This document shows positions 10,485 through 25,378 of a DNA stretch of 64,000 bases, piece after piece (within the stretch, counting starts at the first letter, position 1; the number at the start of each line of letters is the position of its first letter). The position numbers were made by a program, and so were the translations under genes. The notes under the pieces were generated by a model. It saw only the letters and a program-made list of their open reading frames with translations, did not search any database and was not told the DNA's origin. The DNA comes from Escherichia coli. Its GTDB lineage: Bacteria; Pseudomonadota; Gammaproteobacteria; Enterobacterales; Enterobacteriaceae. The stretch lies in assembly GCF_016903815.1 (NCBI RefSeq), contig NZ_CP069973.1. One strand, written 5' to 3'.

Positions 10485-10920
10485 GTGACAGCCGTATTGT
10501 GGCCCTCATCGGGCCACTTTTCGCCATCAGCCTTTTCTTTAAAGACATATTATCTTTGTATCATTTCTGATAGTTAACATTACAAGATATAAGTAATGGA
10601 CGCACTCCCAATTAGTCTATTTAAATCGCCACGAGTTTAACTGACAACCCATGATCAATTATGAATTGCAACTATTTCTGTAGTCACTTTTGTGGGGACA
10701 GTCCACAAAACTGCCAACTTCCGCTTCTTGCTCTTAGCGGACATTAGCATAGGCTATTTACCATAACGCCTCATTACGCGCACCGCCCAGACTGACTCAG
10801 CGCGTTTCTGGCATATCCCCGGTAAAACAAGTAACAAACCACCCGAAAATGAACACCAGAAACGCGACTTAAGAATCTACCCTATGAATGGATATGCACT
10901 CAACCGAATCGATCTTGGTT

Positions 10921-12234
10921 TCAATCTTTTTTATCGGGATCAGGCTTCTTTTTAGGTAACTTCGGGGGCTTAACTTGCTGATGACTTTGCGTTCGGCGCG
11001 TAAGCCAGGGATGGTCAGCTTTAGGTTTAACATAGTATTTTGAGCGTAAATCAATACGGGCATTATCCACTCGTTCATGGACACTCTTTTCATCATCCAG
11101 TGGTATAGGCTCCGGGCCATCAACATACTTTTCCCAGCCCAGCGCTTTCCCGTCATACAGAACGTTAATTTCACCGTCAAAGTTCTCGCATACAGTAACA
11201 ACCGAATGCCTAAGTCGATATCCCCGGCCCTCACTGCGTACCTGAAACGCACTGCTTTTGTACTGGAAAGTGAGATTTTTAGACAGAACGCGCTTCGCCT
11301 GTAGGCTGAAGATATAACCCAGTTCCTCTTCAGAATGGTGCACATCAAGATGAGCATTATCAGTAGTACGAGGCGACGTAGCGAACCGGTTGTTATAGGC
11401 TTCAATAAAGGTCGGCAACCATGCATTTGCTGTTTCAATATCACTGATATTCTGAAGCCGCATTTCTTTGACCAGCCTGTCCTGTAGTGTCTGATTGGCG
11501 CGCTCTACCCGCCCTTTTGCCTGCGGGCTGTTGGCATGGATTGGCTCGATGCCCAGTGTCTTTATCGCACGAGTGAACTGGGTCAGCTCACCTTCCCGCT
11601 CTGGGTTATTTACCCTGAATATACTGTGTCTATCAGAGTAGAGAGCGAGCGGTACGCCATGATCATTAAGGTAACCCCGGAGGGTTTCCATGTAAGCCCG
11701 GGTTGTTTCAGCAGGCACAAAACGCAACGCCATCAACGCACTGGTGGCATCATCAATGAAAACGATCAGTGTACATCTGGGGCCTCGATTTTCAAACCAG
11801 TCATGAGGTGAGCCATCAATCTGGATCAGTTCACCGTAAGATGGTCGTCGCATGCGGCGTTGATATATACGGGCAATTTTACGACGGCGTTCACGCCATA
11901 ACCCCTCTTCTATCATCCACTTTCTGAGAGTTTCAACGGATAAAGATAAACCGTGTATCTCGCGCAATTTTTCGCACGCAAACGTAGGTCCAAAATCAGC
12001 GTAACGGCCTTTGAGGAGTGAAATTACTGTTGCTCTGAATTCAGTAGAAAAGGAATTATTAGGACGCTTTCCACGTCGGTGGGAAACCAGACCAGAAGGC
12101 CCTTCATTTCTATACCGTTGCACCAGACGTTTAACCTGCCGAATAGAAATGCCAATGCGTGCCGCAGCTTGTTCCTGAATAATCTGAAGTCGGTGGAGTT
12201 CCTTATGACTCATCGTAACAGTCTCTTTGATCAT
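10921..12234 (-). CDS. DDE transposase with N-terminal HTH and rve-type integrase core (IS481/ISNCY-like, family unresolved)
   Basis: 437-aa ORF; the rve/RNase-H-type core is inferred from the overall layout of the protein (segments such as IQIDGSPHDW, LIVFIDDATS, ALYSDRHSIF) and was not verified by a profile search; alternative start at 12213 (MSHKEL). Confidence 0.8.
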   Translation of the reverse strand: MIKETVTMSHKELHRLQIIQEQAAARIGISIRQVKRLVQRYRNEGPSGLVSHRRGKRPNNSFSTEFRATVISLLKGRYADFGPTFACEKLREIHGLSLSVETLRKWMIEEGLWRERRRKIARIYQRRMRRPSYGELIQIDGSPHDWFENRGPRCTLIVFIDDATSALMALRFVPAETTRAYMETLRGYLNDHGVPLALYSDRHSIFRVNNPEREGELTQFTRAIKTLGIEPIHANSPQAKGRVERANQTLQDRLVKEMRLQNISDIETANAWLPTFIEAYNNRFATSPRTTDNAHLDVHHSEEELGYIFSLQAKRVLSKNLTFQYKSSAFQVRSEGRGYRLRHSVVTVCENFDGEINVLYDGKALGWEKYVDGPEPIPLDDEKSVHERVDNARIDLRSKYYVKPKADHPWLTRRTQSHQQVKPPKLPKKKPDPDKKD

Positions 12235-12451
12235 GAAAAATCCCCCAGAGAATTGTCTGGGGACATTTTAGAATGGTTCAAAGGGGACATTACAGCTTGG
12301 TGTTAACAATAGCCTGCTTCTCCGTGCCTTTCGGCACGTAAGAGGCTAACCTACATGTGTCTAGCATGAAATTGGCCTCAGATTAATGTTAAGCGTCTTG
12401 CAGGACGCGTAATGTTAACTGGGGCTTTTCTCTATCTGCCTTTGGTGTTCG

Positions 12452-12481
12452 TGCCCGAGGCAGATAGCCTCAAGCACCCGC
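12452..12481 (+). repeat. Direct repeat copy A flanking the kwaAB-like cassette
   Basis: TGCCCGAGGCAGATAGCCTCAAGCACCCGC; 14-nt core CCTCAAGCACCCGC identical to copy B at 14487-14500; preceded by inverted repeat CTATCTGCC/GGCAGATAG. Confidence 0.6.
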
Positions 12482-12717
12482 CGTGATTCTACAAAAACAT
12501 TACCCACCTTTCCAGCAATTCACAACAACTCCATGCAAATAGTAAGTAGAATAATAAGTTATTAGTATTAGCAATTTACTTAGTTTCTAATTTGTGCCAA
12601 TGATTTTCATTTTTGCATGAAAAATACCTTAACATTTTATATTTACTTACTATTTGTAAGCCCCATCAGTTCTTTCTGATGGCGGCTGGTATTTCAGTTC
12701 CAGATATAGTATATGCT

Positions 12718-13746
12718 TTACGCCTTAATAGGGTTAATCACATTTCCGCTATCCGTACCATAGTATTTTTTTGTAGTCATGCCTTGTTTATAATAATCAT
12801 TTAACAGTTTGAGAAAGTTTCTTCCTTGCCTCTCATCTTCTATGACTAATTTACCATGCTCATTGGTCTTAAACTCTTCGTTCTGAAACATTTTTAGCAC
12901 ATCATTCATAGCTTGAACATCATTCTTTTCCAGAACCGTATGGTTACCTTTCTCAGCGATATGAGTGAGAATTTTTCTCAGTGATGGCTTATGAAGAATA
13001 GCTTGTTCAATAACATCTAAACCTTCAATAAGATCAAGTTCTTTAATTGTATTTAATGTTTTTTGTGCAGCTTCTGTAAACTCAACCTCCAAGCCTACAA
13101 TAGCCTCAAAACTTTTCTTATGAAATACATAAAATTGATCTTTTATATAAATACAATCGATTTTGTCATCAAAATTGACTGCGCTGCCATCAAATGATCT
13201 TAACTCTTTATCTGTTTTATCAAACAAAGCGAATACGCGCTGAGTCATATTTTGTGGTTCATTTGTTGTGACTTTCCCCCTGCTGATTTTTCGGAAAGAA
13301 TAAGTGACGTCAGCCCCCTTTTGGACTTTAATACAATAGGCCCACAAATCATTCTGAACCTCAGCAAGAGAGGTAAGTACAACTGGTTTATCATTCTTTA
13401 TATCGTTATTAATAACTTTTGAAAACGATATCGCGTTATTCATAGCATAGGCATAAATTTTATTATCAATATCATCATCAATAACAGTATGCTTTTTCAT
13501 CACAATATCATCTTTCGAAGCATGAGAAATAATCTGGTTTGATAAAGTATACTTAAAAAATTTAGCAATATCTGGAGCGATTGGAGCTTTAATGATTTTA
13601 AAATCGAATTTATCAACAACTCTTGCGGTTCTACTCATACCCGCTTTAAGATGTCTAGTAATGAAATACAACGATATTTTCGCCGCATCATCATCCTTAA
13701 GTTGCTCAGCATACTCTAATAATTCTTCAAGCTTTAACATTTTCAT
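12718..13746 (-). CDS. Soluble 342-aa protein, candidate Kiwa KwaB-like (DUF4868-like) defense component
   Basis: Second gene of an AT-rich two-gene operon, 4-nt overlap with the upstream membrane-protein gene; family assignment by architecture only. Confidence 0.55.
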   Translation of the reverse strand: MKMLKLEELLEYAEQLKDDDAAKISLYFITRHLKAGMSRTARVVDKFDFKIIKAPIAPDIAKFFKYTLSNQIISHASKDDIVMKKHTVIDDDIDNKIYAYAMNNAISFSKVINNDIKNDKPVVLTSLAEVQNDLWAYCIKVQKGADVTYSFRKISRGKVTTNEPQNMTQRVFALFDKTDKELRSFDGSAVNFDDKIDCIYIKDQFYVFHKKSFEAIVGLEVEFTEAAQKTLNTIKELDLIEGLDVIEQAILHKPSLRKILTHIAEKGNHTVLEKNDVQAMNDVLKMFQNEEFKTNEHGKLVIEDERQGRNFLKLLNDYYKQGMTTKKYYGTDSGNVINPIKA

Positions 13747-14357
13747 TCCTTATGGGATTCAGCATAAAAAAGTTTTGGGCCCACGTCCTCAACATCAAGA
13801 AGATCATCTTCCTCCAAATACTTTGATTTAGTCAAAACCATACCAGTGCGTTTTTTGTCGCTTTCTAAATCCAAATATGTAACTTGATATAAAGTATAAT
13901 TAATACTTATTGTAGGATTTATAAGTATCATGCTTGAATTAATATATATTAAAGCCGTTACCGTTAACAATATTGCTATAGGTATAACATTAGTTAAAGT
14001 GGATAGATCCTGAAATACAAACGGAATTATATATGTAAAAAGATAGCTTATTGATTCATTGTTTTTATTTTCAATATCTATAACTCTTACAGTTCTACCA
14101 CTAGTGGCGCATCGACGTTTTATATTTTTTAAAAAAATTGTTAATCCTACAATACCAAATAATGATAATACACCAATGACACTGACCGCGCCAAAGTATT
14201 TAAAGAAAATAGTTAATGATTCAACACTTATACCTTTCCAATTTAAATAGCTTCTATAAGTATACAATTGCACAAAACACATGATAAAGAATAGGGGAAG
14301 GTATGACACTATAAATAGCGAAACTCTAGCACCTAAATGTAGTTTATTTACTCTCAT
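13743..14357 (-). CDS. Four-helix integral membrane protein, candidate Kiwa KwaA-like
   Basis: 204 aa with four hydrophobic segments (about residues 12-32, 55-76, 103-115, 125-140) and an acidic C-terminal tail; -10-like TAAAAT about 30 nt upstream. Confidence 0.55.
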   Translation of the reverse strand: MRVNKLHLGARVSLFIVSYLPLFFIMCFVQLYTYRSYLNWKGISVESLTIFFKYFGAVSVIGVLSLFGIVGLTIFLKNIKRRCATSGRTVRVIDIENKNNESISYLFTYIIPFVFQDLSTLTNVIPIAILLTVTALIYINSSMILINPTISINYTLYQVTYLDLESDKKRTGMVLTKSKYLEEDDLLDVEDVGPKLFYAESHKE

Positions 14358-14470
14358 AACTACCCCACAGCCTACACGTCTAGTATTTTATGTTATTTCG
14401 AATAATTATGCATCAGATTACCATCCTACAATTGTGCATAAAACGAGCATTTTGCTGATTTTTCTGCGGA

Positions 14471-14500
14471 TGCCTGAGACAGACAACCTCAAGCACCCGC
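14471..14500 (+). repeat. Direct repeat copy B flanking the kwaAB-like cassette
   Basis: TGCCTGAGACAGACAACCTCAAGCACCCGC, about 80 percent identical to copy A over 30 bp, same orientation. Confidence 0.6.
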
Positions 14501-14565
14501 AGCAATTTTACTTAACTCCCGCTACCTCGCCAATATGAAATCAATAAGAAAGGTGCTCCATAAAA

Positions 14566-15252
14566 TCACTCCTTCTCTTCTTTATCGTAGTGGAGTTGAC
14601 CAATTTTGATAAGAGGGCGTCCCTGAGATTTGCGGTGTAGATTGGTATCGCGCAGAGAATACACACAGCCACAATATTCCTGCTGATAGAATTTTTCGCG
14701 CTTGCTGATTTCAATCATGCGGGACGAGCCGCCCTGCTTGCGCCAGTTATAATCCCAGTACACCATGCCCGGATAATGCGCGACGGCTCGCCGCCCACAG
14801 TCGTTAACCTGCTGCATATTTTTCCAGCGTGAAATGCCCAGTGAACTGCTGATCACACTGAAACCATTTTCAGCAGCGTACAGCGCTGTCCGCTCAAAAC
14901 GCATGTCAAAACACATGGTACAACGGATCCCCCTCTCGGGCTCCCATTCCATTCCTTTGGCACGTTCAAACCAGTTGTCTGTGTCGTAATCAGCATCAAT
15001 AAATGGCACGCCGTGTTGTTCAGCAAAGCGAATATTCTCATCCTTACGAATTAAATACTCTTTCTGAGGATGAATGTTCGGGTTGTAGAAAAAGATGGTA
15101 TAGTCGATTCTCGAGGCCTGAAGTGCCTCCATCACTTCACCGGAACATGGAGCACAGCAAGAGTGCAGTAGTAGTTTGTTTGCCCCGTTTGGGAGCTCCA
15201 ATTTAGGCCGTTTGAAATCAGCAATAGTCATAAATATTTTTATTGGGGTCAT
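14566..15252 (-). CDS. QueH-like (DUF208) epoxyqueuosine-reductase homolog
   Basis: N-terminal [11 protein letters not shown] motif plus further conserved Cys (CTMC, CGC); alternative start at 15231. Confidence 0.65.
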
Positions 15253-15433
15253 AAAAATAGCACAGAGTGTGGCATCAGAGCAGGGCTATCGGGAATAGAT
15301 GTCTAAATCTGGTAATATCTGCTTTTGACGCATAGCAGACAACCACGCTAGCTCAATCCTGTGCCGTGAAAATGTCAATTCACATCTGAACTAATGCTCT
15401 TTAATCTAGTTACGTCTATAAATAACGAAAATT

Positions 15434-15832
15434 TCACTGATAAAATGCCAGTATGCGCTGCATAACTTCGCTCTTCCGGCACTCACAGCAAATTATGTTT
15501 TGGTGCCTGTCATAACGACGTATTTCTCCGTCAGGTAATGACCAGATAAGGTCCGGATCAACCACAGATGTTTTCTTCACCTTTGCCCTCGAGAGTTTTT
15601 TGCGGGCGTTTTGCCAGTCCTTACGAGCCTGTTCAGACGGGAATAACCCGTAGCCAGAGTTATATACATCACCACTGGCAACCAGCTCTCTGGCGAGAAC
15701 GCTCATCAGATATCTTGTCGCACCTGTCTTGGCTTCCAGTTGCCGTAACGTCTCGCGCCCACTCCGGCGTACTAGCTCAACAACCTGCCCCTTGATTTTT
15801 TCCCGCTCTTCTTGTGTAAAAACTTTTGCCAC
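15434..15832 (-). CDS. Hypothetical prophage early protein (132 aa)
   Basis: ORF downstream of the replication gene on the same strand; CCxC motif near the C-terminus. Confidence 0.45.
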   Translation of the reverse strand: MAKVFTQEEREKIKGQVVELVRRSGRETLRQLEAKTGATRYLMSVLARELVASGDVYNSGYGLFPSEQARKDWQNARKKLSRAKVKKTSVVDPDLIWSLPDGEIRRYDRHQNIICCECRKSEVMQRILAFYQ

Positions 15833-15872
15833 AAGTCCCCCTTAAAATTACCTCATGACCTGAAATCAAAAC

Positions 15873-16892
15873 TTATCCTCTGAAACCAGGCGGAATTTCT
15901 GTATCCGGTTCAGAAATATGATTAACACAACGCTGTACAGGTGAACGCCCCAGGCGGATGACCAGTTCGTCCCATTTTTCGCGGAGCTTTGACGGGCTCA
16001 TGATGTTTTTTACCCAGAATGGATCCCGCTGTACCCGACCAAACATTTCACAAATTTGTCTGTGACTTCTGCCATCCAGCATCCGCATTGTGCGCACATC
16101 ATTGGCCCAGACAGTCCAGTTAGGCTCTTTTGGTCGCATGATCTCGCCATCATCACTGGCGGCCTGTTCGTAGAGACCCACGATCCGCCCCCATATCCAC
16201 TGCGCACACGCCAGATCCTCCTGGCTACCCCACTGGCGTTTTTTCGCACTAAACACAACTGCGCCAGGGTGCCGGATTAAAAAATCCTGTTCAGCCGTCT
16301 GCGGGTCCGGTTGCGAAGCTTCCGGACGAAAAGTGTTTTTATTCTCTGTAGTAATCTCTGTTGTATTCTCTGTAGGATCATCGGGCCATTTTGACCCGAT
16401 GACATTGGGTCGTTTTGAACCAATGGAGCGTTTCATTTTGACCTCTTCCATCGTGTCATTTTGACCTGATGGAGCGGCGCATTTTGAACCGATGGATTCG
16501 CTCAATTTGCCATCATCTAAAAGCTCGCTCCCATAGTTAATCGTGTAGAAATTGGTCATATCGCGCTTTGATTTATTGAGCTTTTCACAACGCAAAAGCC
16601 CCAGCGTTTTCAGACTTGCAAACGCGCGCTTTAACGTTGACTCTGACCAGAATGGGAACTGTTCCAGCCATTGTTCCGTTGTGTTGTAAATCCAGCGAAC
16701 ACCATCACATTCCATGCCGGAATTGGTATCTCTCAACCAGTAATGCAACTGCTGCAACACAATGGCTTCATTTAAGCCAATCTTCATCGCAAGCTGTGTG
16801 TTTATAACCAGTGGGCGTTCAGCAAAAAGAAGGCTCATAATTCCATCCAGCTTTTTGTTGGTATTGCTGTCGATACGCAAGCTTGAAAGCAA
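15873..16892 (-). CDS. Phage replication initiator (lambda O-like)
   Basis: 339-aa ORF with HTH-like N-terminal domain; central IGSK repeats encoded by DNA iterons; start codon uncertain. Confidence 0.65.
   Translation of the reverse strand: MLSSLRIDSNTNKKLDGIMSLLFAERPLVINTQLAMKIGLNEAIVLQQLHYWLRDTNSGMECDGVRWIYNTTEQWLEQFPFWSESTLKRAFASLKTLGLLRCEKLNKSKRDMTNFYTINYGSELLDDGKLSESIGSKCAAPSGQNDTMEEVKMKRSIGSKRPNVIGSKWPDDPTENTTEITTENKNTFRPEASQPDPQTAEQDFLIRHPGAVVFSAKKRQWGSQEDLACAQWIWGRIVGLYEQAASDDGEIMRPKEPNWTVWANDVRTMRMLDGRSHRQICEMFGRVQRDPFWVKNIMSPSKLREKWDELVIRLGRSPVQRCVNHISEPDTEIPPGFRG
16330..16520. repeat. Candidate phage origin: five to six iterons (consensus about CATTTTGACCYGATGG) plus adjacent ATTCTCTGTAG repeats, inside the O-like gene
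   Basis: Tandem near-repeats at roughly 20-24-bp spacing between 16385 and 16520, AT-rich repeats at 16340-16378. Confidence 0.6.
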
Positions 16893-18207: not shown

Positions 18208-18363
18208 ATGGATACTATCGATCTTGGCAACAACGAATCTCTGGTGTACGGCGTGTTTCCAAACCAGGACGGCACGTTCACCGCAATGACGTATACCAAA
18301 AGCAAAACGTTTAAAACCGAAAATGGTGCCCGTCGCTGGCTGGAAAGAAACTCAGGTGAGTGA
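18208..18363 (+). CDS. ydfA: YdfA-like small protein (51 aa)
   Basis: MDTIDLGNNESLVYGVFPNQDGTFTAMTYTKSKTFKTENGARRWLERNSGE within ORF 18154..18363. Confidence 0.75.
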   Translation: MDTIDLGNNESLVYGVFPNQDGTFTAMTYTKSKTFKTENGARRWLERNSGE

Positions 18364-18364
18364 T

Positions 18365-18940
18365 ATGGATTTCGACACAATCATGGAAAAGGCTTACGAA
18401 GAATACTTCGAAGGCCTTGCCGAAGGCGAAGAAGCTCTCAGCTTCAGTGAGTTTAAACAGGCACTCAGAATAAGAATGTGCTCTCACAATGACGCGGAGC
18501 ACAAATATGAGAAGCAAAATCAGACCGCAGAAAATTTTGTTCTGGAACCCGGAGAAACGCTTTTCAAAATTCCCGTTACGTGCCCCATTTGCGGTTTTAC
18601 ATCAGAAGAACTTGACGACTCCTGTAACAATCAGGAAACAACCAAGTATGTCGAAGATGATACCGAGTGCGCACGAAGAACGATTATATCCACGAGTCCA
18701 AACTCCAGGACCAATAAATCTCACTTTGAGAGGGTGATTAATCCACTCCCCCAAACCAATAAAAAAGATGCCGGAGGACAAAAAACCCAATGGAACAACG
18801 GGATATCTGTCAAAAAAAGACGTTCCATTAAAGACAAACAACGCAGCGCCAACAACTGTAAGCGCTTTATACCAGTAATCAATTTTCATGTTCTTAAGCG
18901 GATTTATTGGTGGTTGCGACATTGCTTAATGAATCCTTAA
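18365..18940 (+). CDS. YdfB/YdfC-region protein, continuous 191-aa ORF with CPICG motif
   Basis: ATG 2 nt after the ydfA stop; start of ORF 18323..18940 trimmed to MDFDTIMEKAYEEYFEG…. Confidence 0.45.
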   Translation: MDFDTIMEKAYEEYFEGLAEGEEALSFSEFKQALRIRMCSHNDAEHKYEKQNQTAENFVLEPGETLFKIPVTCPICGFTSEELDDSCNNQETTKYVEDDTECARRTIISTSPNSRTNKSHFERVINPLPQTNKKDAGGQKTQWNNGISVKKRRSIKDKQRSANNCKRFIPVINFHVLKRIYWWLRHCLMNP

Positions 18941-19199: not shown

Positions 19200-19257
19200 T
19201 TTCTGGTGACGTTTGGCGGTATCAGTTTTACTCCGTGACTGCTCTGCCGCCGTTTTT
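19200..19257 (+). ncRNA. dicF: DicF small regulatory RNA
   Basis: TTTCTGGTGACGTTTGGCGGTATCAGTTTTACTCCGTGACTGCTCTGCCGCC followed by a T-tract, matching recalled DicF. Confidence 0.85.
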
Positions 19258-22762: not shown

Positions 22763-23440
22763 ATGTCCATCATTTTTAATGGACACTATCGTATGAAACA
22801 CCGGACCTGGATCACTGAAGCTTTACGTCTTCACTTTGAAGAACATTTACCCCGGGTTGTGGCCGGGCGTCGCCTGGGTGTACCAAAATCAACAGTTTGT
22901 AGTATGTTCGTGCGCTTTCGGAGAGCTGGCCTTTCGTGGCCTTTGCCCGCAGGCATGTCGGAGCAGGAACTTGATGCCTGCCTTTACGGACAATTTTCCA
23001 CGGTACCAGTCGTACGTCCTGAAAGCACCGTTATATCCGAAGCCCCCGTGGTAAAAAAACGTCCCCGGCGGCCCAACTTCCCTTATGAGTTTAAAATCGC
23101 CTTAGTGGAGCAGTCACTGCAGCCCGGAGCCTGTGTGGCGCAGATCGCCCGGGAAAACGGAATCAACGATAACCTGCTCTTCAACTGGCGCCATCAATAC
23201 CGGAAAGGTGGCCTGCTGCCTTCCGGAAAAAATATGCCGGCACTGCTTCCCGTGACGTTAACGCCGGAGCCGGATAATAAAATCCCGGCCCCCGCACAGG
23301 AACCAGAGCAGATAAATACACCGTCCGACAGTCTGTGTTGTGAGCTGGTTCTGCCGGCCGGAACTCTCAGGCTTAAAGGTAAACTGACGCCGGCGTTATT
23401 ACAGACACTTATCCGCGAAATAAAAGGGAGCAGCCACTGA
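22763..23440 (+). CDS. tnpA: IS66-family accessory protein (orf1/TnpA, HTH)
   Basis: ORF with IS66 orf1-like segment (…FKIALVEQSLQPGACVAQIARENGINDNLLFNWRHQYRKG…); start uncertain (22763 or 22793). Confidence 0.65.
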   Translation: MSIIFNGHYRMKHRTWITEALRLHFEEHLPRVVAGRRLGVPKSTVCSMFVRFRRAGLSWPLPAGMSEQELDACLYGQFSTVPVVRPESTVISEAPVVKKRPRRPNFPYEFKIALVEQSLQPGACVAQIARENGINDNLLFNWRHQYRKGGLLPSGKNMPALLPVTLTPEPDNKIPAPAQEPEQINTPSDSLCCELVLPAGTLRLKGKLTPALLQTLIREIKGSSH

Positions 23441-23787
23441 TGATATCTCTCCCTGCAGGTTCGCGTATCTGGCTGGTTGCAGGTATCACCGATATGCGAA
23501 ATGGCTTTAACGGCCTGGCATCAAAAGTTCAGAACGTCCTGAAGGATGACCCGTTCTCCGGACACCTGTTCATCTTCCGCGGACGCCGGGGTGACCAGAT
23601 AAAAGTGTTGTGGGCTGACAGTGACGGACTGTGCCTCTTCACCAAACGCCTGGAGCGGGGCCGCTTCGTCTGGCCAGTCACCCGTGACGGCAAGGTGCAC
23701 CTTACTCCGGCTCAGTTATCCATGCTTCTTGAAGGTATCAACTGGAAGCACCCGAAACGAACGGAACGCGCTGGAATCCGCATATAA
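23440..23787 (+). CDS. tnpB: IS66-family TnpB (orf2)
   Basis: 115 aa MISLPAGSRIWLVAGITDMRNGFNGLA…; ATGA overlap with orf1. Confidence 0.85.
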   Translation: MISLPAGSRIWLVAGITDMRNGFNGLASKVQNVLKDDPFSGHLFIFRGRRGDQIKVLWADSDGLCLFTKRLERGRFVWPVTRDGKVHLTPAQLSMLLEGINWKHPKRTERAGIRI

Positions 23788-23806
23788 CCCGTTGTAAAGT
23801 GAGGAT

Positions 23807-25378
23807 ATGGACACCTCACTTGCTCATGAGAACGCCCGCCTGCGGGCACTGTTGCAGACGCAACAGGACACCATCCGCCAGATGGCTGAATACAACCGCC
23901 TGCTCTCACAGCGGGTGGCGGCTTATGCTTCCGAAATCAACCGGCTGAAGGCGCTGGTTGCGAAACTGCAACGTATGCAGTTCGGTAAAAGCTCAGAAAA
24001 ACTTCGTGCAAAAACCGAACGGCAGATACAGGAAGCACAGGAGCGAATCAGCGCACTTCAGGAAGAAATGGCGGAAACGCTGGGTGAGCAATATGACCCG
24101 GTACTGCCATCCGCCCTGCGCCAGTCTTCAGCCCGTAAACCGTTACCGGCCTCACTTCCCCGTGAAACCCGGGTTATCCGGCCGGAAGAGGAATGCTGTC
24201 CTGCCTGTGGTGGTGAACTCAGTTCTCTGGGATGTGATGTGTCAGAGCAACTGGAGCTTATCAGCAGCGCCTTTAAGGTTATCGAAACACAACGTCCGAA
24301 ACAGGCCTGTTGCCGGTGCGACCATATCGTGCAGGCACCAGTACCTTCAAAACCCATTGCACGCAGTTATGCCGGAGCGGGGCTTCTGGCCCATGTTGTC
24401 ACCGGGAAATATGCAGACCATCTGCCGTTATACCGCCAGTCAGAAATATACCGTCGTCAGGGAGTGGAGCTGAGCCGTGCCACACTGGGGCGCTGGACAG
24501 GTGCTGTTGCTGAACTGCTGGAGCCGCTGTATGACGTCCTGCGCCAGTATGTGCTGATGCCCGGTAAAGTCCATGCTGATGATATCCCCGTCCCGGTCCA
24601 GGAGCCGGGCAGCGGTAAAACCCGGACAGCCCGGCTGTGGGTCTACGTCCGTGATGACCGTAACGCCGGTTCACAGATGCCCCCGGCGGTCTGGTTCGCG
24701 TACAGTCCGGACCGGAAAGGTATCCATCCACAAAATCACCTGGCCGGTTACAGCGGTGTGCTTCAGGCCGATGCTTACGGTGGTTACCGGGCGTTATACG
24801 AATCCGGCAGAATAACGGAAGCCGCGTGTATGGCTCATGCCCGGAGAAAAATCCACGATGTGCATGCAAGAGCGCCCACCTACATCACCACGGAAGCCCT
24901 GCAGCGTATCGGTGAACTGTATGCCATCGAGGCAGAGGTCCGGGGCTGTTCAGCAGAACAGCGTCTGGCGGCAAGAAAAGCCAGAGCCGCGCCACTGATG
25001 CAGTCACTGTATGACTGGATACAGCAACAGATGAAAACACTGTCGCGTCACTCAGATACGGCAAAAGCGTTCGCATACCTGCTGAAACAGTGGGATGCAC
25101 TGAACGTGTACTGCAGTAATGGCTGGGTGGAAATCGACAACAACATCGCAGAGAACGCCTTACGGGGAGTGGCCGTAGGCCGGAAAAACTGGATGTTCGC
25201 GGGTTCCAACAGCGGTGGTGAACATGCGGCGGTGTTGTACTCGCTGATCGGCACATGCCGTCTGAACAATGTGGAGCCAGAAAAGTGGCTGCGTTACGTC
25301 ATTGAACATATCCAGGACTGGCCGGCAAACCGGGTACGCGATCTGTTGCCCTGGAAAGTTGATCTGAGCTCTCAGTAA
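23807..25378 (+). CDS. tnpC: IS66-family transposase TnpC (DDE)
   Basis: 523 aa with coiled-coil N-terminus, CxxC zinc motifs (CPACGG…CCRCDH) and DDE core. Confidence 0.9.

Follow-up and report, generated by a model that had tools for sequence, protein, structure and literature searches.

A two-gene operon in an AT-rich prophage region

The window analysed here, a 64,000 nt stretch of an Escherichia coli chromosome, carries two intact, co-oriented ORFs on the minus strand, with kwaA directly 5′ of kwaB (Table 1). The original prediction, made from the DNA letters alone, had described minus-strand ORFs of 204 and 342 aa, and both are present in the ORF list, at 13743..14357 and 12718..13746. 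Neither frame is plausibly a product of chance, because about 8 % of random codons are stops at approximately 31 % GC; simple arithmetic puts the probability of an open frame at about 1e-7 for 204 codons and 1e-12 for 340 codons.

Table 1. Features of the Kiwa cassette and its immediate flanks (window coordinates)
Feature	Coordinates	Strand	Description
kwaA	13743..14357	-	ORF; 204 aa
kwaB	12718..13740	-	340 aa from the second ATG; the 342 aa alternative starts at 13746 and overlaps kwaA by ATGA
AT-rich cassette	12493..14469		~1.98 kb; kwaA-kwaB plus short flanks; without counterpart in the related EC958 prophage
Direct repeat, right copy	14471..14511		Imperfect, 41 bp; from junction alignment; contains a -10-like hexamer
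Direct repeat, left copy	12452..12492		Imperfect, 41 bp; continuous with the hok-leader/sok remnant
hok-leader/sok region	12308..12479	-	Flanking, outside Kiwa; Rfam RF01794, 105.6 bits, full model
Candidate operon promoter	14505..14533	-	Sigma-70-like, TTGGCG-17-TAAAAT; consensus match; 148 nt 5′ of the kwaA ATG

The two genes had been proposed to overlap by 4 nt. Although the ATGA is indeed there in the sequence, it is probably not the real junction, and a kwaB start two codons later, leaving a 2 nt gap after the kwaA stop, is better supported. An AAGGA Shine–Dalgarno sequence lies 6 nt 5′ of the ATG at 13740, RefSeq/PGAP annotation starts the gene at this codon, the PADLOC KwaB profile match opens at residue 3 of the 342 aa ORF, KwaB homologues are nearly all 337–342 aa long (mostly 338–340 aa), and the same 2 nt gap separates the genes in E. 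coli and Klebsiella relatives.

The GC profile bears out the expectation of an AT-rich operon between richer flanks: kwaA has 29.6 % GC and kwaB 32.9 %, whereas the two flanks reach 45.9 and 47.6 % and the window as a whole averages 48.0 %. The gene context is also as first described, between the replication genes and Q and close to an insertion sequence and relBE-hokD. Upstream lie replication genes (O and DUF977) and queH, and downstream lie an ISNCY transposase gene, flxA, relBE, hokD and Q. A PADLOC search of six neighbouring ORFs identified no additional defence genes.

Assignment of both proteins to the Kiwa families

The pair had been put forward as a candidate Kiwa system, composed of the membrane protein KwaA and the DUF4868 protein KwaB, and profile searches with PADLOC, Pfam and NCBIfam all agree with that assignment. 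The 204 aa protein matches the PADLOC KwaA model PDLC00212 end to end (E=1.3e-101; residues 1–203 on profile positions 2–204 of 205), and its partner matches the KwaB model PDLC00223 over profile positions 1–338 of 339 (E=5.1e-158); weaker matches extend to 11 further Kiwa sub-models for KwaA and seven for KwaB. Pfam PF16162 (KwaB/DUF4868) covers residues 132–319 of KwaB (i-E=2.4e-16). The top NCBIfam matches are NF041622 (KwaA; 81.1 bits) for the 204 aa protein and NF041623 (KwaB; 57.6 bits) for the second. PF28043 (KwaA) is assigned to all 120 listed homologues of the 204 aa protein, a link that runs through their precomputed annotation, as the direct Pfam profile search did not return this family. 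A marginal NCBIfam match to the retron HNH family TIGR02646 (E=0.019) was dismissed as chance.

RefSeq names the proteins ‘KwaA family protein’ (WP_001265627.1) and ‘Kiwa anti-phage protein KwaB-like domain-containing protein’ (WP_251301666.1), and the operon in the window is the same element as the one encoding these two records, with no difference between them. Because these exact proteins already carry the Kiwa label, the fallback offered in the original prediction, of an undescribed two-gene membrane system, does not apply. In most RefSeq records KwaA is still called a ‘hypothetical protein’.

Predicted structures point the same way. Kyte–Doolittle hydropathy of KwaA shows three strong hydrophobic segments and a weaker TM3, and the AlphaFold2 model (pLDDT 80.7) has four long helices (residues 8–33, 45–86, 99–114 and 121–140) and β-strands at 88–97, 155–163, 169–176, 186–193 and 196–201. 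The loop between TM2 and TM3 contains seven K/R residues, which fits a positive-inside topology, and the C-terminal 44 residues include 12 acidic and seven basic residues; the four hydrophobic helices and acidic tail noticed at the outset are thereby recovered. KwaA is modelled as a four-TM integral membrane protein whose cytoplasmic β-domain is formed by the TM2–TM3 loop and the C-terminus. In a Foldseek search of the PDB, this monomer model matched 9mrx_A (E=2.3e-11, TM scores 0.76/0.80, r.m.s.d. 3.5 over 213 columns), and significant matches were confined to solved KwaA, with none to other folds.

KwaB lacks any hydrophobic segment, in keeping with the soluble protein anticipated, and its model (pLDDT 80.2) combines an N-terminal α/β (Rossmann-like) domain with a C-terminal DUF4868 domain. 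Full-length Foldseek matches were obtained to 9mrx_D, 9nyu_A and 9mtn (E=2e-13 to 2e-11, TM scores 0.57–0.65), those to 9mrx_D and 9nyu_A having E of about 2–5e-13 and TM scores of 0.60/0.64, with about 345 aligned columns at E=2.4e-13. Only solved KwaB was significant in this search, the next PDB match having E=0.25, and a PDB sequence search with both proteins likewise returned ‘Kiwa protein KwaA/KwaB’ entries only. By sequence profile and predicted fold, the two proteins are KwaA and KwaB family members, and the AT-rich pair constitutes an operon of the Kiwa anti-phage defence system, which has already been described.

A cargo cassette between queH and hok/sok

Placement of the pair in a prophage moron hotspot was borne out by comparison with a related prophage of strain EC958, which is annotated DUF977-QueH-hokD, without Kiwa, and provides an empty site. 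In blastn and Smith–Waterman alignments, positions 5905–7269 of the EC958 locus (L006) align to window positions 14470–15835 at 94 % identity, and positions 5762–5946 align to 12309–12492 at 89 %, revealing a discrete insertion between the prophage queH and the hok/sok leader, a short way downstream of the apparent hok promoter. The two 41 bp repeat copies that bound the cassette are identical at 32 of 41 bases, and by local alignment both match a single-copy EC958 segment (L006 5905–5946). The homologous hok-leader/sok element of EC958 abuts hokD, whereas in the window another insertion, of ~3.3 kb and comprising relBE-ydfV-flxA-ydfW-ISNCY, separates it from the hokD ORF (8866..9021). The Kiwa operon is a horizontally acquired cargo cassette of ~2 kb in a Qin-like lambdoid E. 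coli prophage.

A tentative extension of these observations, which we consider unlikely as a whole, is that the cassette was captured within a type I toxin–antitoxin locus, about 28 nt past the presumed hok transcription start, that its far end bears a second, diverged copy of the leader's first ~41 nt, and that it would therefore be transcribed from the hok promoter. The hok/sok loci of lambdoid prophages might then be recombination sites at which defence cassettes are swapped, Kiwa expression might be tied to hok-type regulation, and this lineage, at 16–22 % identity to the characterized proteins, may have its own trigger or phage range.

Promoter signals and the question of expression

The candidate promoter matches the sigma-70 consensus at nine of 12 positions. 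Its EC958 homologue (TTGGCG-17-TAGAAT, L006 5968..5940) lies directly 5′ of the Rfam sok/hok-leader match, and no other promoter-like site precedes the hok leader in that prophage. Promoter-like matches show no enrichment in the AT-rich region, where 13 were counted and 10.1 were expected; the one retained was therefore that with a counterpart in the empty locus. A terminator scan found no intrinsic terminator after kwaB. The operon would be expressed in this strain, probably from the captured hok-type promoter.

In E. coli, H-NS typically silences DNA with a GC content of 30 %. A competing reading, to which we attach a low but real probability, is that the pair is a true Kiwa homologue that is silent or ineffective in this strain, either repressed by a protein such as H-NS or weakly read from the hok-type promoter, and carried as a passenger of a decaying prophage. 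The 30–33 % GC of the cassette fits such a reading, as do the absence of a strong promoter match within the cassette in our scan and the degraded state of the prophage, with its IS insertions, split hok/sok and an IS66 element between xis and int. However, 155 genomes carry both ORFs intact and with at least 99 % identity, the pair has been kept under purifying selection across genera, and all five Kiwa operons assayed on native promoters were anti-phage (PMC11785009).

Distribution and selective constraint

The 155 genomes just mentioned are drawn from 5,426 complete E. coli genomes (~3 %), and they carry this exact Kiwa variant in a Qin-like prophage. One sequence, NZ_CP103762.1, carries 100 % identical DNA over 2.1 kb in the same prophage context, adjoining rspAB. 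Beyond these near-identical copies, kwaA is also found directly 5′ of kwaB in Vibrio cholerae, Pseudoalteromonas, Klebsiella and other E. coli. The KwaB proteins encoded in V. cholerae lambdoid prophages (L002–L004), a Klebsiella defence island (L011) and an hlyE-adjacent island of E. coli (L008–L010) are 76–83 % identical to that of the window, and these cassettes share with it gene order, gene sizes, low GC and residence in mobile or defence islands. Their insertion sites differ, and none has the queH-hok/sok placement, so that this placement is ruled out as a general trait of the lineage. Relatives occur in lambdoid prophages, beside Shedu SduA_C, and next to MazEF together with DarTG.

Across genera the two genes are conserved and under purifying selection, with pN/pS of 0.16–0.38; pN/pS is given in place of dN/dS because synonymous sites are saturated. 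No match to the operon emerged from a megablast search of 50,697 phage records, but the PHROG families phrog_7312 and phrog_11123 show that phage genomes do contain homologues.

Our analysis gives this AT-rich island of the prophage a function. It also shows that gene order and size allowed a defence system to be called correctly from sequence alone. What is new is modest, namely the distance of this variant from the solved Kiwa proteins and a base-level picture of an insertion between queH and the hok/sok leader. This exact variant should be counted in the defence repertoire of its carriers when phage susceptibility is predicted, for example in phage therapy.

Proposed mode of action

Taken as a whole, the evidence makes it very probable that the AT-rich cargo of this Qin-like prophage is a Kiwa operon acting by the published Kiwa mechanism (PMC11785009). 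By analogy with the O55:H7 and ECOR systems, this divergent lineage would assemble and act as they do, and would block phages likewise. KwaA, a four-helix inner-membrane protein, would form tetramers whose cytoplasmic β-domains dock KwaB dimers, building a membrane supercomplex of the kind known for the O55:H7 proteins only (PMC11785009). Disturbance of the membrane by phage attachment or DNA ejection, or by conjugation, would render the complex active at the site of entry, where KwaB may bind the incoming DNA through DUF4868 without cutting it. Phage replication would stall, and late transcription would therefore stall as well, leaving a surviving cell rather than one lost to abortive infection. 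KwaB could be inhibited by proteins that mimic DNA, lambda Gam being one example. Anti-phage and anti-conjugation phenotypes that depend on both genes have been demonstrated for other Kiwa operons (PMC11785009).

Partial HMMER alignments allowed some published functional residues to be mapped, N134, R142, R21, P100 and KwaA Y181/F183 not being among them. In KwaB, the counterpart of D169 is an invariant D, and K187 and R233 also align with K and R; these three positions are D191, K209 and R255 in the 340 aa numbering. R167 (DNA contact) and Y157 (KwaA contact) are not conserved. In KwaA, an invariant G stands at the position of G78 and a nearly invariant R at that of K75, and the LKNI motif closing TM2 is common to the O55:H7 and window proteins.

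Loss of the R167 and Y157 equivalents, together with the 16–22 % identity to the characterized system, the variant-specific phage ranges of Kiwa and the hourglass, channel-like shape of the KwaA tetramer (PMC11785009), would suit a Kiwa fold put to a different mechanism, with a trigger or effector action other than DNA binding at the entry site, such as a channel or membrane effect of KwaA or another ligand at the N-terminal domain of KwaB. We judge this improbable, as the full-length fold is kept in both proteins, conservation extends to several positions at the DNA contacts and the interface, and systems from different phylogenetic clusters have all been found to defend (PMC11785009). That the pair is no defence system at all, and instead a membrane-toxin, holin-like or addiction module tied to the hok/sok locus, is scarcely credible: the operon does lie inside a type I toxin–antitoxin locus, but the marginal matches to Pfam LrgA (E=0.11 over 42 residues) and, for KwaB, to a PHROG holin (E=0.034) are not significant and sit at chance level beside Kiwa matches of 1e-101 and 1e-158. 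This reading is effectively refuted by the PADLOC and fold matches. Relatives of the gene pair lie at quite different sites that lack hok/sok, and published Kiwa does not kill its host (PMC11785009).

Comparison with characterized Kiwa systems

The first report of Kiwa is credited in PMC11785009 to Doron et al. 2018, and the structurally characterized representative is that of E. coli O55:H7 RM12579 (KwaA P0DW45 and KwaB P0DW46; PDB 9mrg, 9mrr, 9mrx, 9mtn and 9nyu). This system and the window operon share the order kwaA-kwaB, a four-TM KwaA with a cytoplasmic β-domain, a KwaB that joins an α/β domain to DUF4868, and carriage on mobile elements. Identity in structural alignment is only 16 % for KwaB and 22 % for KwaA, and the window proteins are slightly longer than their O55:H7 counterparts (204 versus 195 aa for KwaA, 340 versus 315 aa for KwaB). 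Unlike O55:H7 Kiwa, they match the PADLOC sub-models PDLC00212 and PDLC00223 far better than the other Kiwa sub-models. Both NCBIfam scores fall below the equivalog cut-offs, which are 100 bits for NF041622 (KwaA) and 200 bits for NF041623 (KwaB), so that by NCBI thresholds the proteins are family members and not equivalogs of the O55:H7-type proteins, in agreement with their cautious RefSeq names. The window operon represents a Kiwa lineage distant from the O55:H7 system of known structure.

A full-text literature search for WP_001265627 returned no match, and the texts of PMC11785009 and of a synergy preprint give the tested operons as strain names only. As ECOR49 KwaA is 71.6 % similar to O55:H7 KwaA (PMC11785009), ECOR49 is not of the window operon's lineage. 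The Kiwa operons of E. coli ECOR8, ECOR12, ECOR49 and D9 and of Ralstonia mannitolilytica SN82F48, cloned under their native promoters, were all anti-phage (five of five), and conjugation was lowered by four of them (PMC11785009). Systems from different phylogenetic clusters were all defensive, each variant having its own phage specificity (PMC11785009). The window operon is of the same system type as these five, and similar behaviour is to be expected of it.

Identity of the two genes

The two AT-rich minus-strand genes almost certainly encode the Kiwa components KwaA and KwaB. KwaA matched PADLOC profile PDLC00212 (E=1.3e-101, residues 1-203 on profile positions 2-204 of 205) and KwaB matched PDLC00223 (E=5.1e-158, profile positions 1-338 of 339), with weaker matches to 11 further KwaA and seven further KwaB sub-models. 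Pfam KwaB/DUF4868 (PF16162) was found in KwaB (2.4e-16), and these searches bear out for both proteins the original prediction of a Kiwa-like system. The best NCBIfam matches were the KwaA and KwaB equivalog models, at scores below their curated cut-offs (81.1 vs 100 bits for KwaA; 57.6 vs 200 bits for KwaB). In a PDB sequence search, ‘Kiwa protein KwaA’ and ‘Kiwa protein KwaB’ were the only matches, with E values of about 1e-6 when single sequences were searched and 1e-7 to 1e-8 with family profiles. RefSeq names KwaB ‘Kiwa anti-phage protein KwaB-like domain-containing protein’; KwaA is ‘KwaA family protein’ in the newer annotations and otherwise ‘hypothetical protein’. The operon is a known system and its finding ordinary; a dedicated PADLOC sub-model is matched end to end and a RefSeq name has already been given.

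Structures predicted from alignments of 45 homologues for each protein (pLDDT 80.2 for KwaB, 80.7 for KwaA) matched the solved Kiwa chains. The significant PDB matches of the KwaB model were KwaB chains only (9mrx_D, 9nyu, 9mtn; E=2e-13 to 2e-11, TM 0.57-0.65, 16% identity), the next match having E=0.25. The KwaA model likewise matched only KwaA chains (9mrx_A: E=2.3e-11, TM 0.76/0.80, rmsd 3.5 Å, 22% identity); it contains four long helices, with strands formed by the TM2-TM3 loop and the C-terminus.

Both reading frames are intact, at the lengths originally described (Table). Of the four hydrophobic helices claimed for KwaA, three are strong in the sequence and the fourth segment is weaker; a K/R-rich loop joins segments two and three. 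The acidic tail originally noted was recovered as a net acidic C-terminal region, and the absence of any hydrophobic segment from the 342-aa KwaB agrees with its description as soluble. The ATGA overlap between the two ORFs is present in the sequence, but as a gene junction it is disfavoured: kwaB more likely starts at the second ATG, at 13740, on four grounds. This ATG is preceded, at a distance of 6 nt, by an AAGGA ribosome-binding site; it is the start used in RefSeq; the PADLOC KwaB match begins with the third residue of the longer ORF; and homologues are 337-342 aa long, mainly 338-340, the resulting 2-nt gap between kwaA and kwaB being present in relatives too. The genes are tightly coupled whichever start is used.

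Coordinates of features in the window and, where stated, in L006, the locus from EC958, which has a related prophage lacking Kiwa
Feature	Position	Strand	Description
kwaA ORF	13743..14357	-	intact, 204 aa
kwaB ORF, long form	12718..13746	-	intact, 342 aa
Imperfect 41-bp direct repeats	12452..12492 and 14471..14511		32/41 identical; bracket the kwaAB cassette
Promoter-like site	14533..14505		TTGGCG-17-TAAAAT; homologue of EC958 site; upstream of kwaA
sok/hok leader	12308..12479	-	full-length Rfam match; immediately downstream of kwaB
hokD ORF	8866..9021	-	~3.3 kb from its hok leader; contiguous in EC958
Apparent second insertion	9036..12308		relBE, ydfV, flxA, ydfW, ISNCY; parts hok leader from hokD ORF
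EC958 match	14470-15835		L006 5905-7269, 94%
EC958 match	12309-12492		L006 5762-5946, 89%
EC958 match	8771-9035		L006 5514-5777, 98%
queH	14566..15252	-	directly upstream of Kiwa cassette
ISNCY-family transposase ORF	10921..12234	-	437 aa, open; adjoins hok-leader remnant
205-aa ORF	18323..18940	+	between ydfA and DicF
106-aa hydrophobic ORF	18602..18922	-	overlaps 205-aa ORF on opposite strand
IS66-family element	~22763..25378	+	tnpA, tnpB, ISCro1 transposase
Rfam elements in prophage	1463..1848, 4645..4768, 5070..5462	-
Rfam element in prophage	19201..19252	+

The host prophage and the hok/sok locus

The operon is carried by a Qin-like lambdoid prophage adjoining rspAB, with the gene order int-xis-exo-dicB-DicF-dicA/dicC-ydaT-O-DUF977-queH-kwaA-kwaB, followed by ISNCY-ydfW-flxA-ydfV-relBE-hokD-rem-ydfU-Q-lysis; the ORF map and RefSeq annotation confirm the neighbourhood originally described. 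Related prophages of EC958 and DLI.5a have the order DUF977-queH-hokD-...-DUF968-RusA-Q and lack Kiwa. Alignment blocks with EC958 place the bounds of the kwaAB cassette at 12493..14469, about 1.98 kb. Both bracketing repeats match one and the same 5′ hok-leader segment, which is single-copy in the empty-site prophage; the divergence of the repeats suggests that two different hok loci recombined, rather than that a target site was duplicated.

In EC958, the hok-leader/sok element (Rfam RF01794, L006 5758..5933), of which the repeat segment is the start, abuts the hokD ORF. Because leader and hokD are contiguous there, the relBE-ydfV-flxA-ydfW-ISNCY block of the window appears to have been inserted between hok leader and coding region. 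hokD/relF has been described as a hok copy outside sok control. The window's hok-leader element carries no annotation in the RefSeq record. The sole promoter-like site at the EC958 locus (TTGGCG-17-TAGAAT, L006 5968..5940) lies just upstream of hok-leader/sok. Its homologue in the window (Table) lies upstream of kwaA; judged by consensus match and homology, kwaAB may be read from it as the former hok promoter.

Other elements were also observed in the prophage. QueH, an epoxyqueuosine reductase (ORF of 228 aa; 221 aa in RefSeq), had no match in PADLOC, and what it would do for a phage is not evident; a query of queH, the DUF977 gene and 28 nt of O (14566..15900) was at least 80% covered in 922 of 5,426 complete E. 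coli genomes. RefSeq calls the corresponding ISNCY transposase gene an incomplete pseudogene with its C-terminus missing. Between ydfA and DicF, where RefSeq has only a ydfB fragment, the 205-aa ORF matched phrog_35040, of unknown function, end to end (E=7e-150) and the 106-aa ORF had no family match; neither matched anything in PADLOC or NCBIfam. The IS66-family element separates the excisionase gene from the integrase gene and has probably left the prophage unable to excise. The Rfam elements, typical Qin cargo, are DicF, the sRNA STnc490 and two thermoregulator leaders of cspA type, in the cspI and cspB regions.

Distribution and selection

Copies of the operon with at least 99% identity occur, always on the chromosome, in 155 of the 5,426 complete E. 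coli genomes. Its family extends through Enterobacterales, Vibrio, Aeromonas, Shewanella, Photobacterium and Pseudoalteromonas; precomputed PF16162 was present on 87 of 88 KwaB clusters, and PF28043 on all 120 of the 161 KwaA clusters that were among the matches listed. The kwaA-kwaB order was constant in all contexts examined (V. cholerae, Pseudoalteromonas, E. coli, Klebsiella). In V. cholerae the pair lies in lambdoid prophages between lysis genes and Rha/KilA-N, in Pseudoalteromonas it adjoins phage tail genes, and in another E. coli it occupies an island by hlyE with large integrases. One V. cholerae prophage has a Shedu SduA_C gene (locus L002, 7964..8590) adjoining the orthologous cassette, and a Klebsiella island (locus L011, 4108..4698, 7333..9622) combines orthologous Kiwa with MazEF, DarT/DarG-like genes and a UvrD-like helicase.

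The AT-richness originally noted was upheld: GC is 28-34% over 12400-14400 vs ~45-50% either side (kwaA 29.6%, kwaB 32.9%; flanks 45.9% and 47.6%; entire window 48.0%). The lineage itself is GC-poor (29-36%), whatever the host. Against Vibrio and Pseudoalteromonas orthologues, low pN (0.12-0.30) with saturated pS (0.71-0.87) indicates purifying selection on both genes.

Mechanism and relation to known Kiwa systems

KwaA tetramers and KwaB dimers build a fence-like supercomplex in the membrane, and defence, which is not abortive, needs kwaA, kwaB and the TM helices of KwaA (PMC11785009). KwaB gathers in foci where phages attach; through DUF4868 it binds both ssDNA and dsDNA but does not cleave them, and the phage shows less DNA replication and late transcription (PMC11785009). 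Lambda Gam binds and inhibits KwaB, and RecBCD competes for Gam (PMC11785009). All five operons assayed, from different clusters, protected against phages, each with distinct specificity; conjugation, too, was reduced by four of them (PMC11785009).

Family and fold make it very probable that the window operon would be active by this published mechanism; we are less confident of its expression in situ. Published residues mapped through HMMER alignments give partial support: KwaB D169, K187 and R233 correspond to an invariant D, a K and an R, and KwaA K75 and G78 to a nearly invariant R and an invariant G. The LKNI motif that closes TM2 of the published KwaA is present here as well, while KwaB R167 and Y157 had no conserved equivalents in these alignments.

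The remaining interest of the operon lies in its divergence and in its insertion into a hok/sok locus. Whereas the solved Kiwa structures derive from the proteins of E. coli O55:H7, those described here belong to a distant lineage of the same system.
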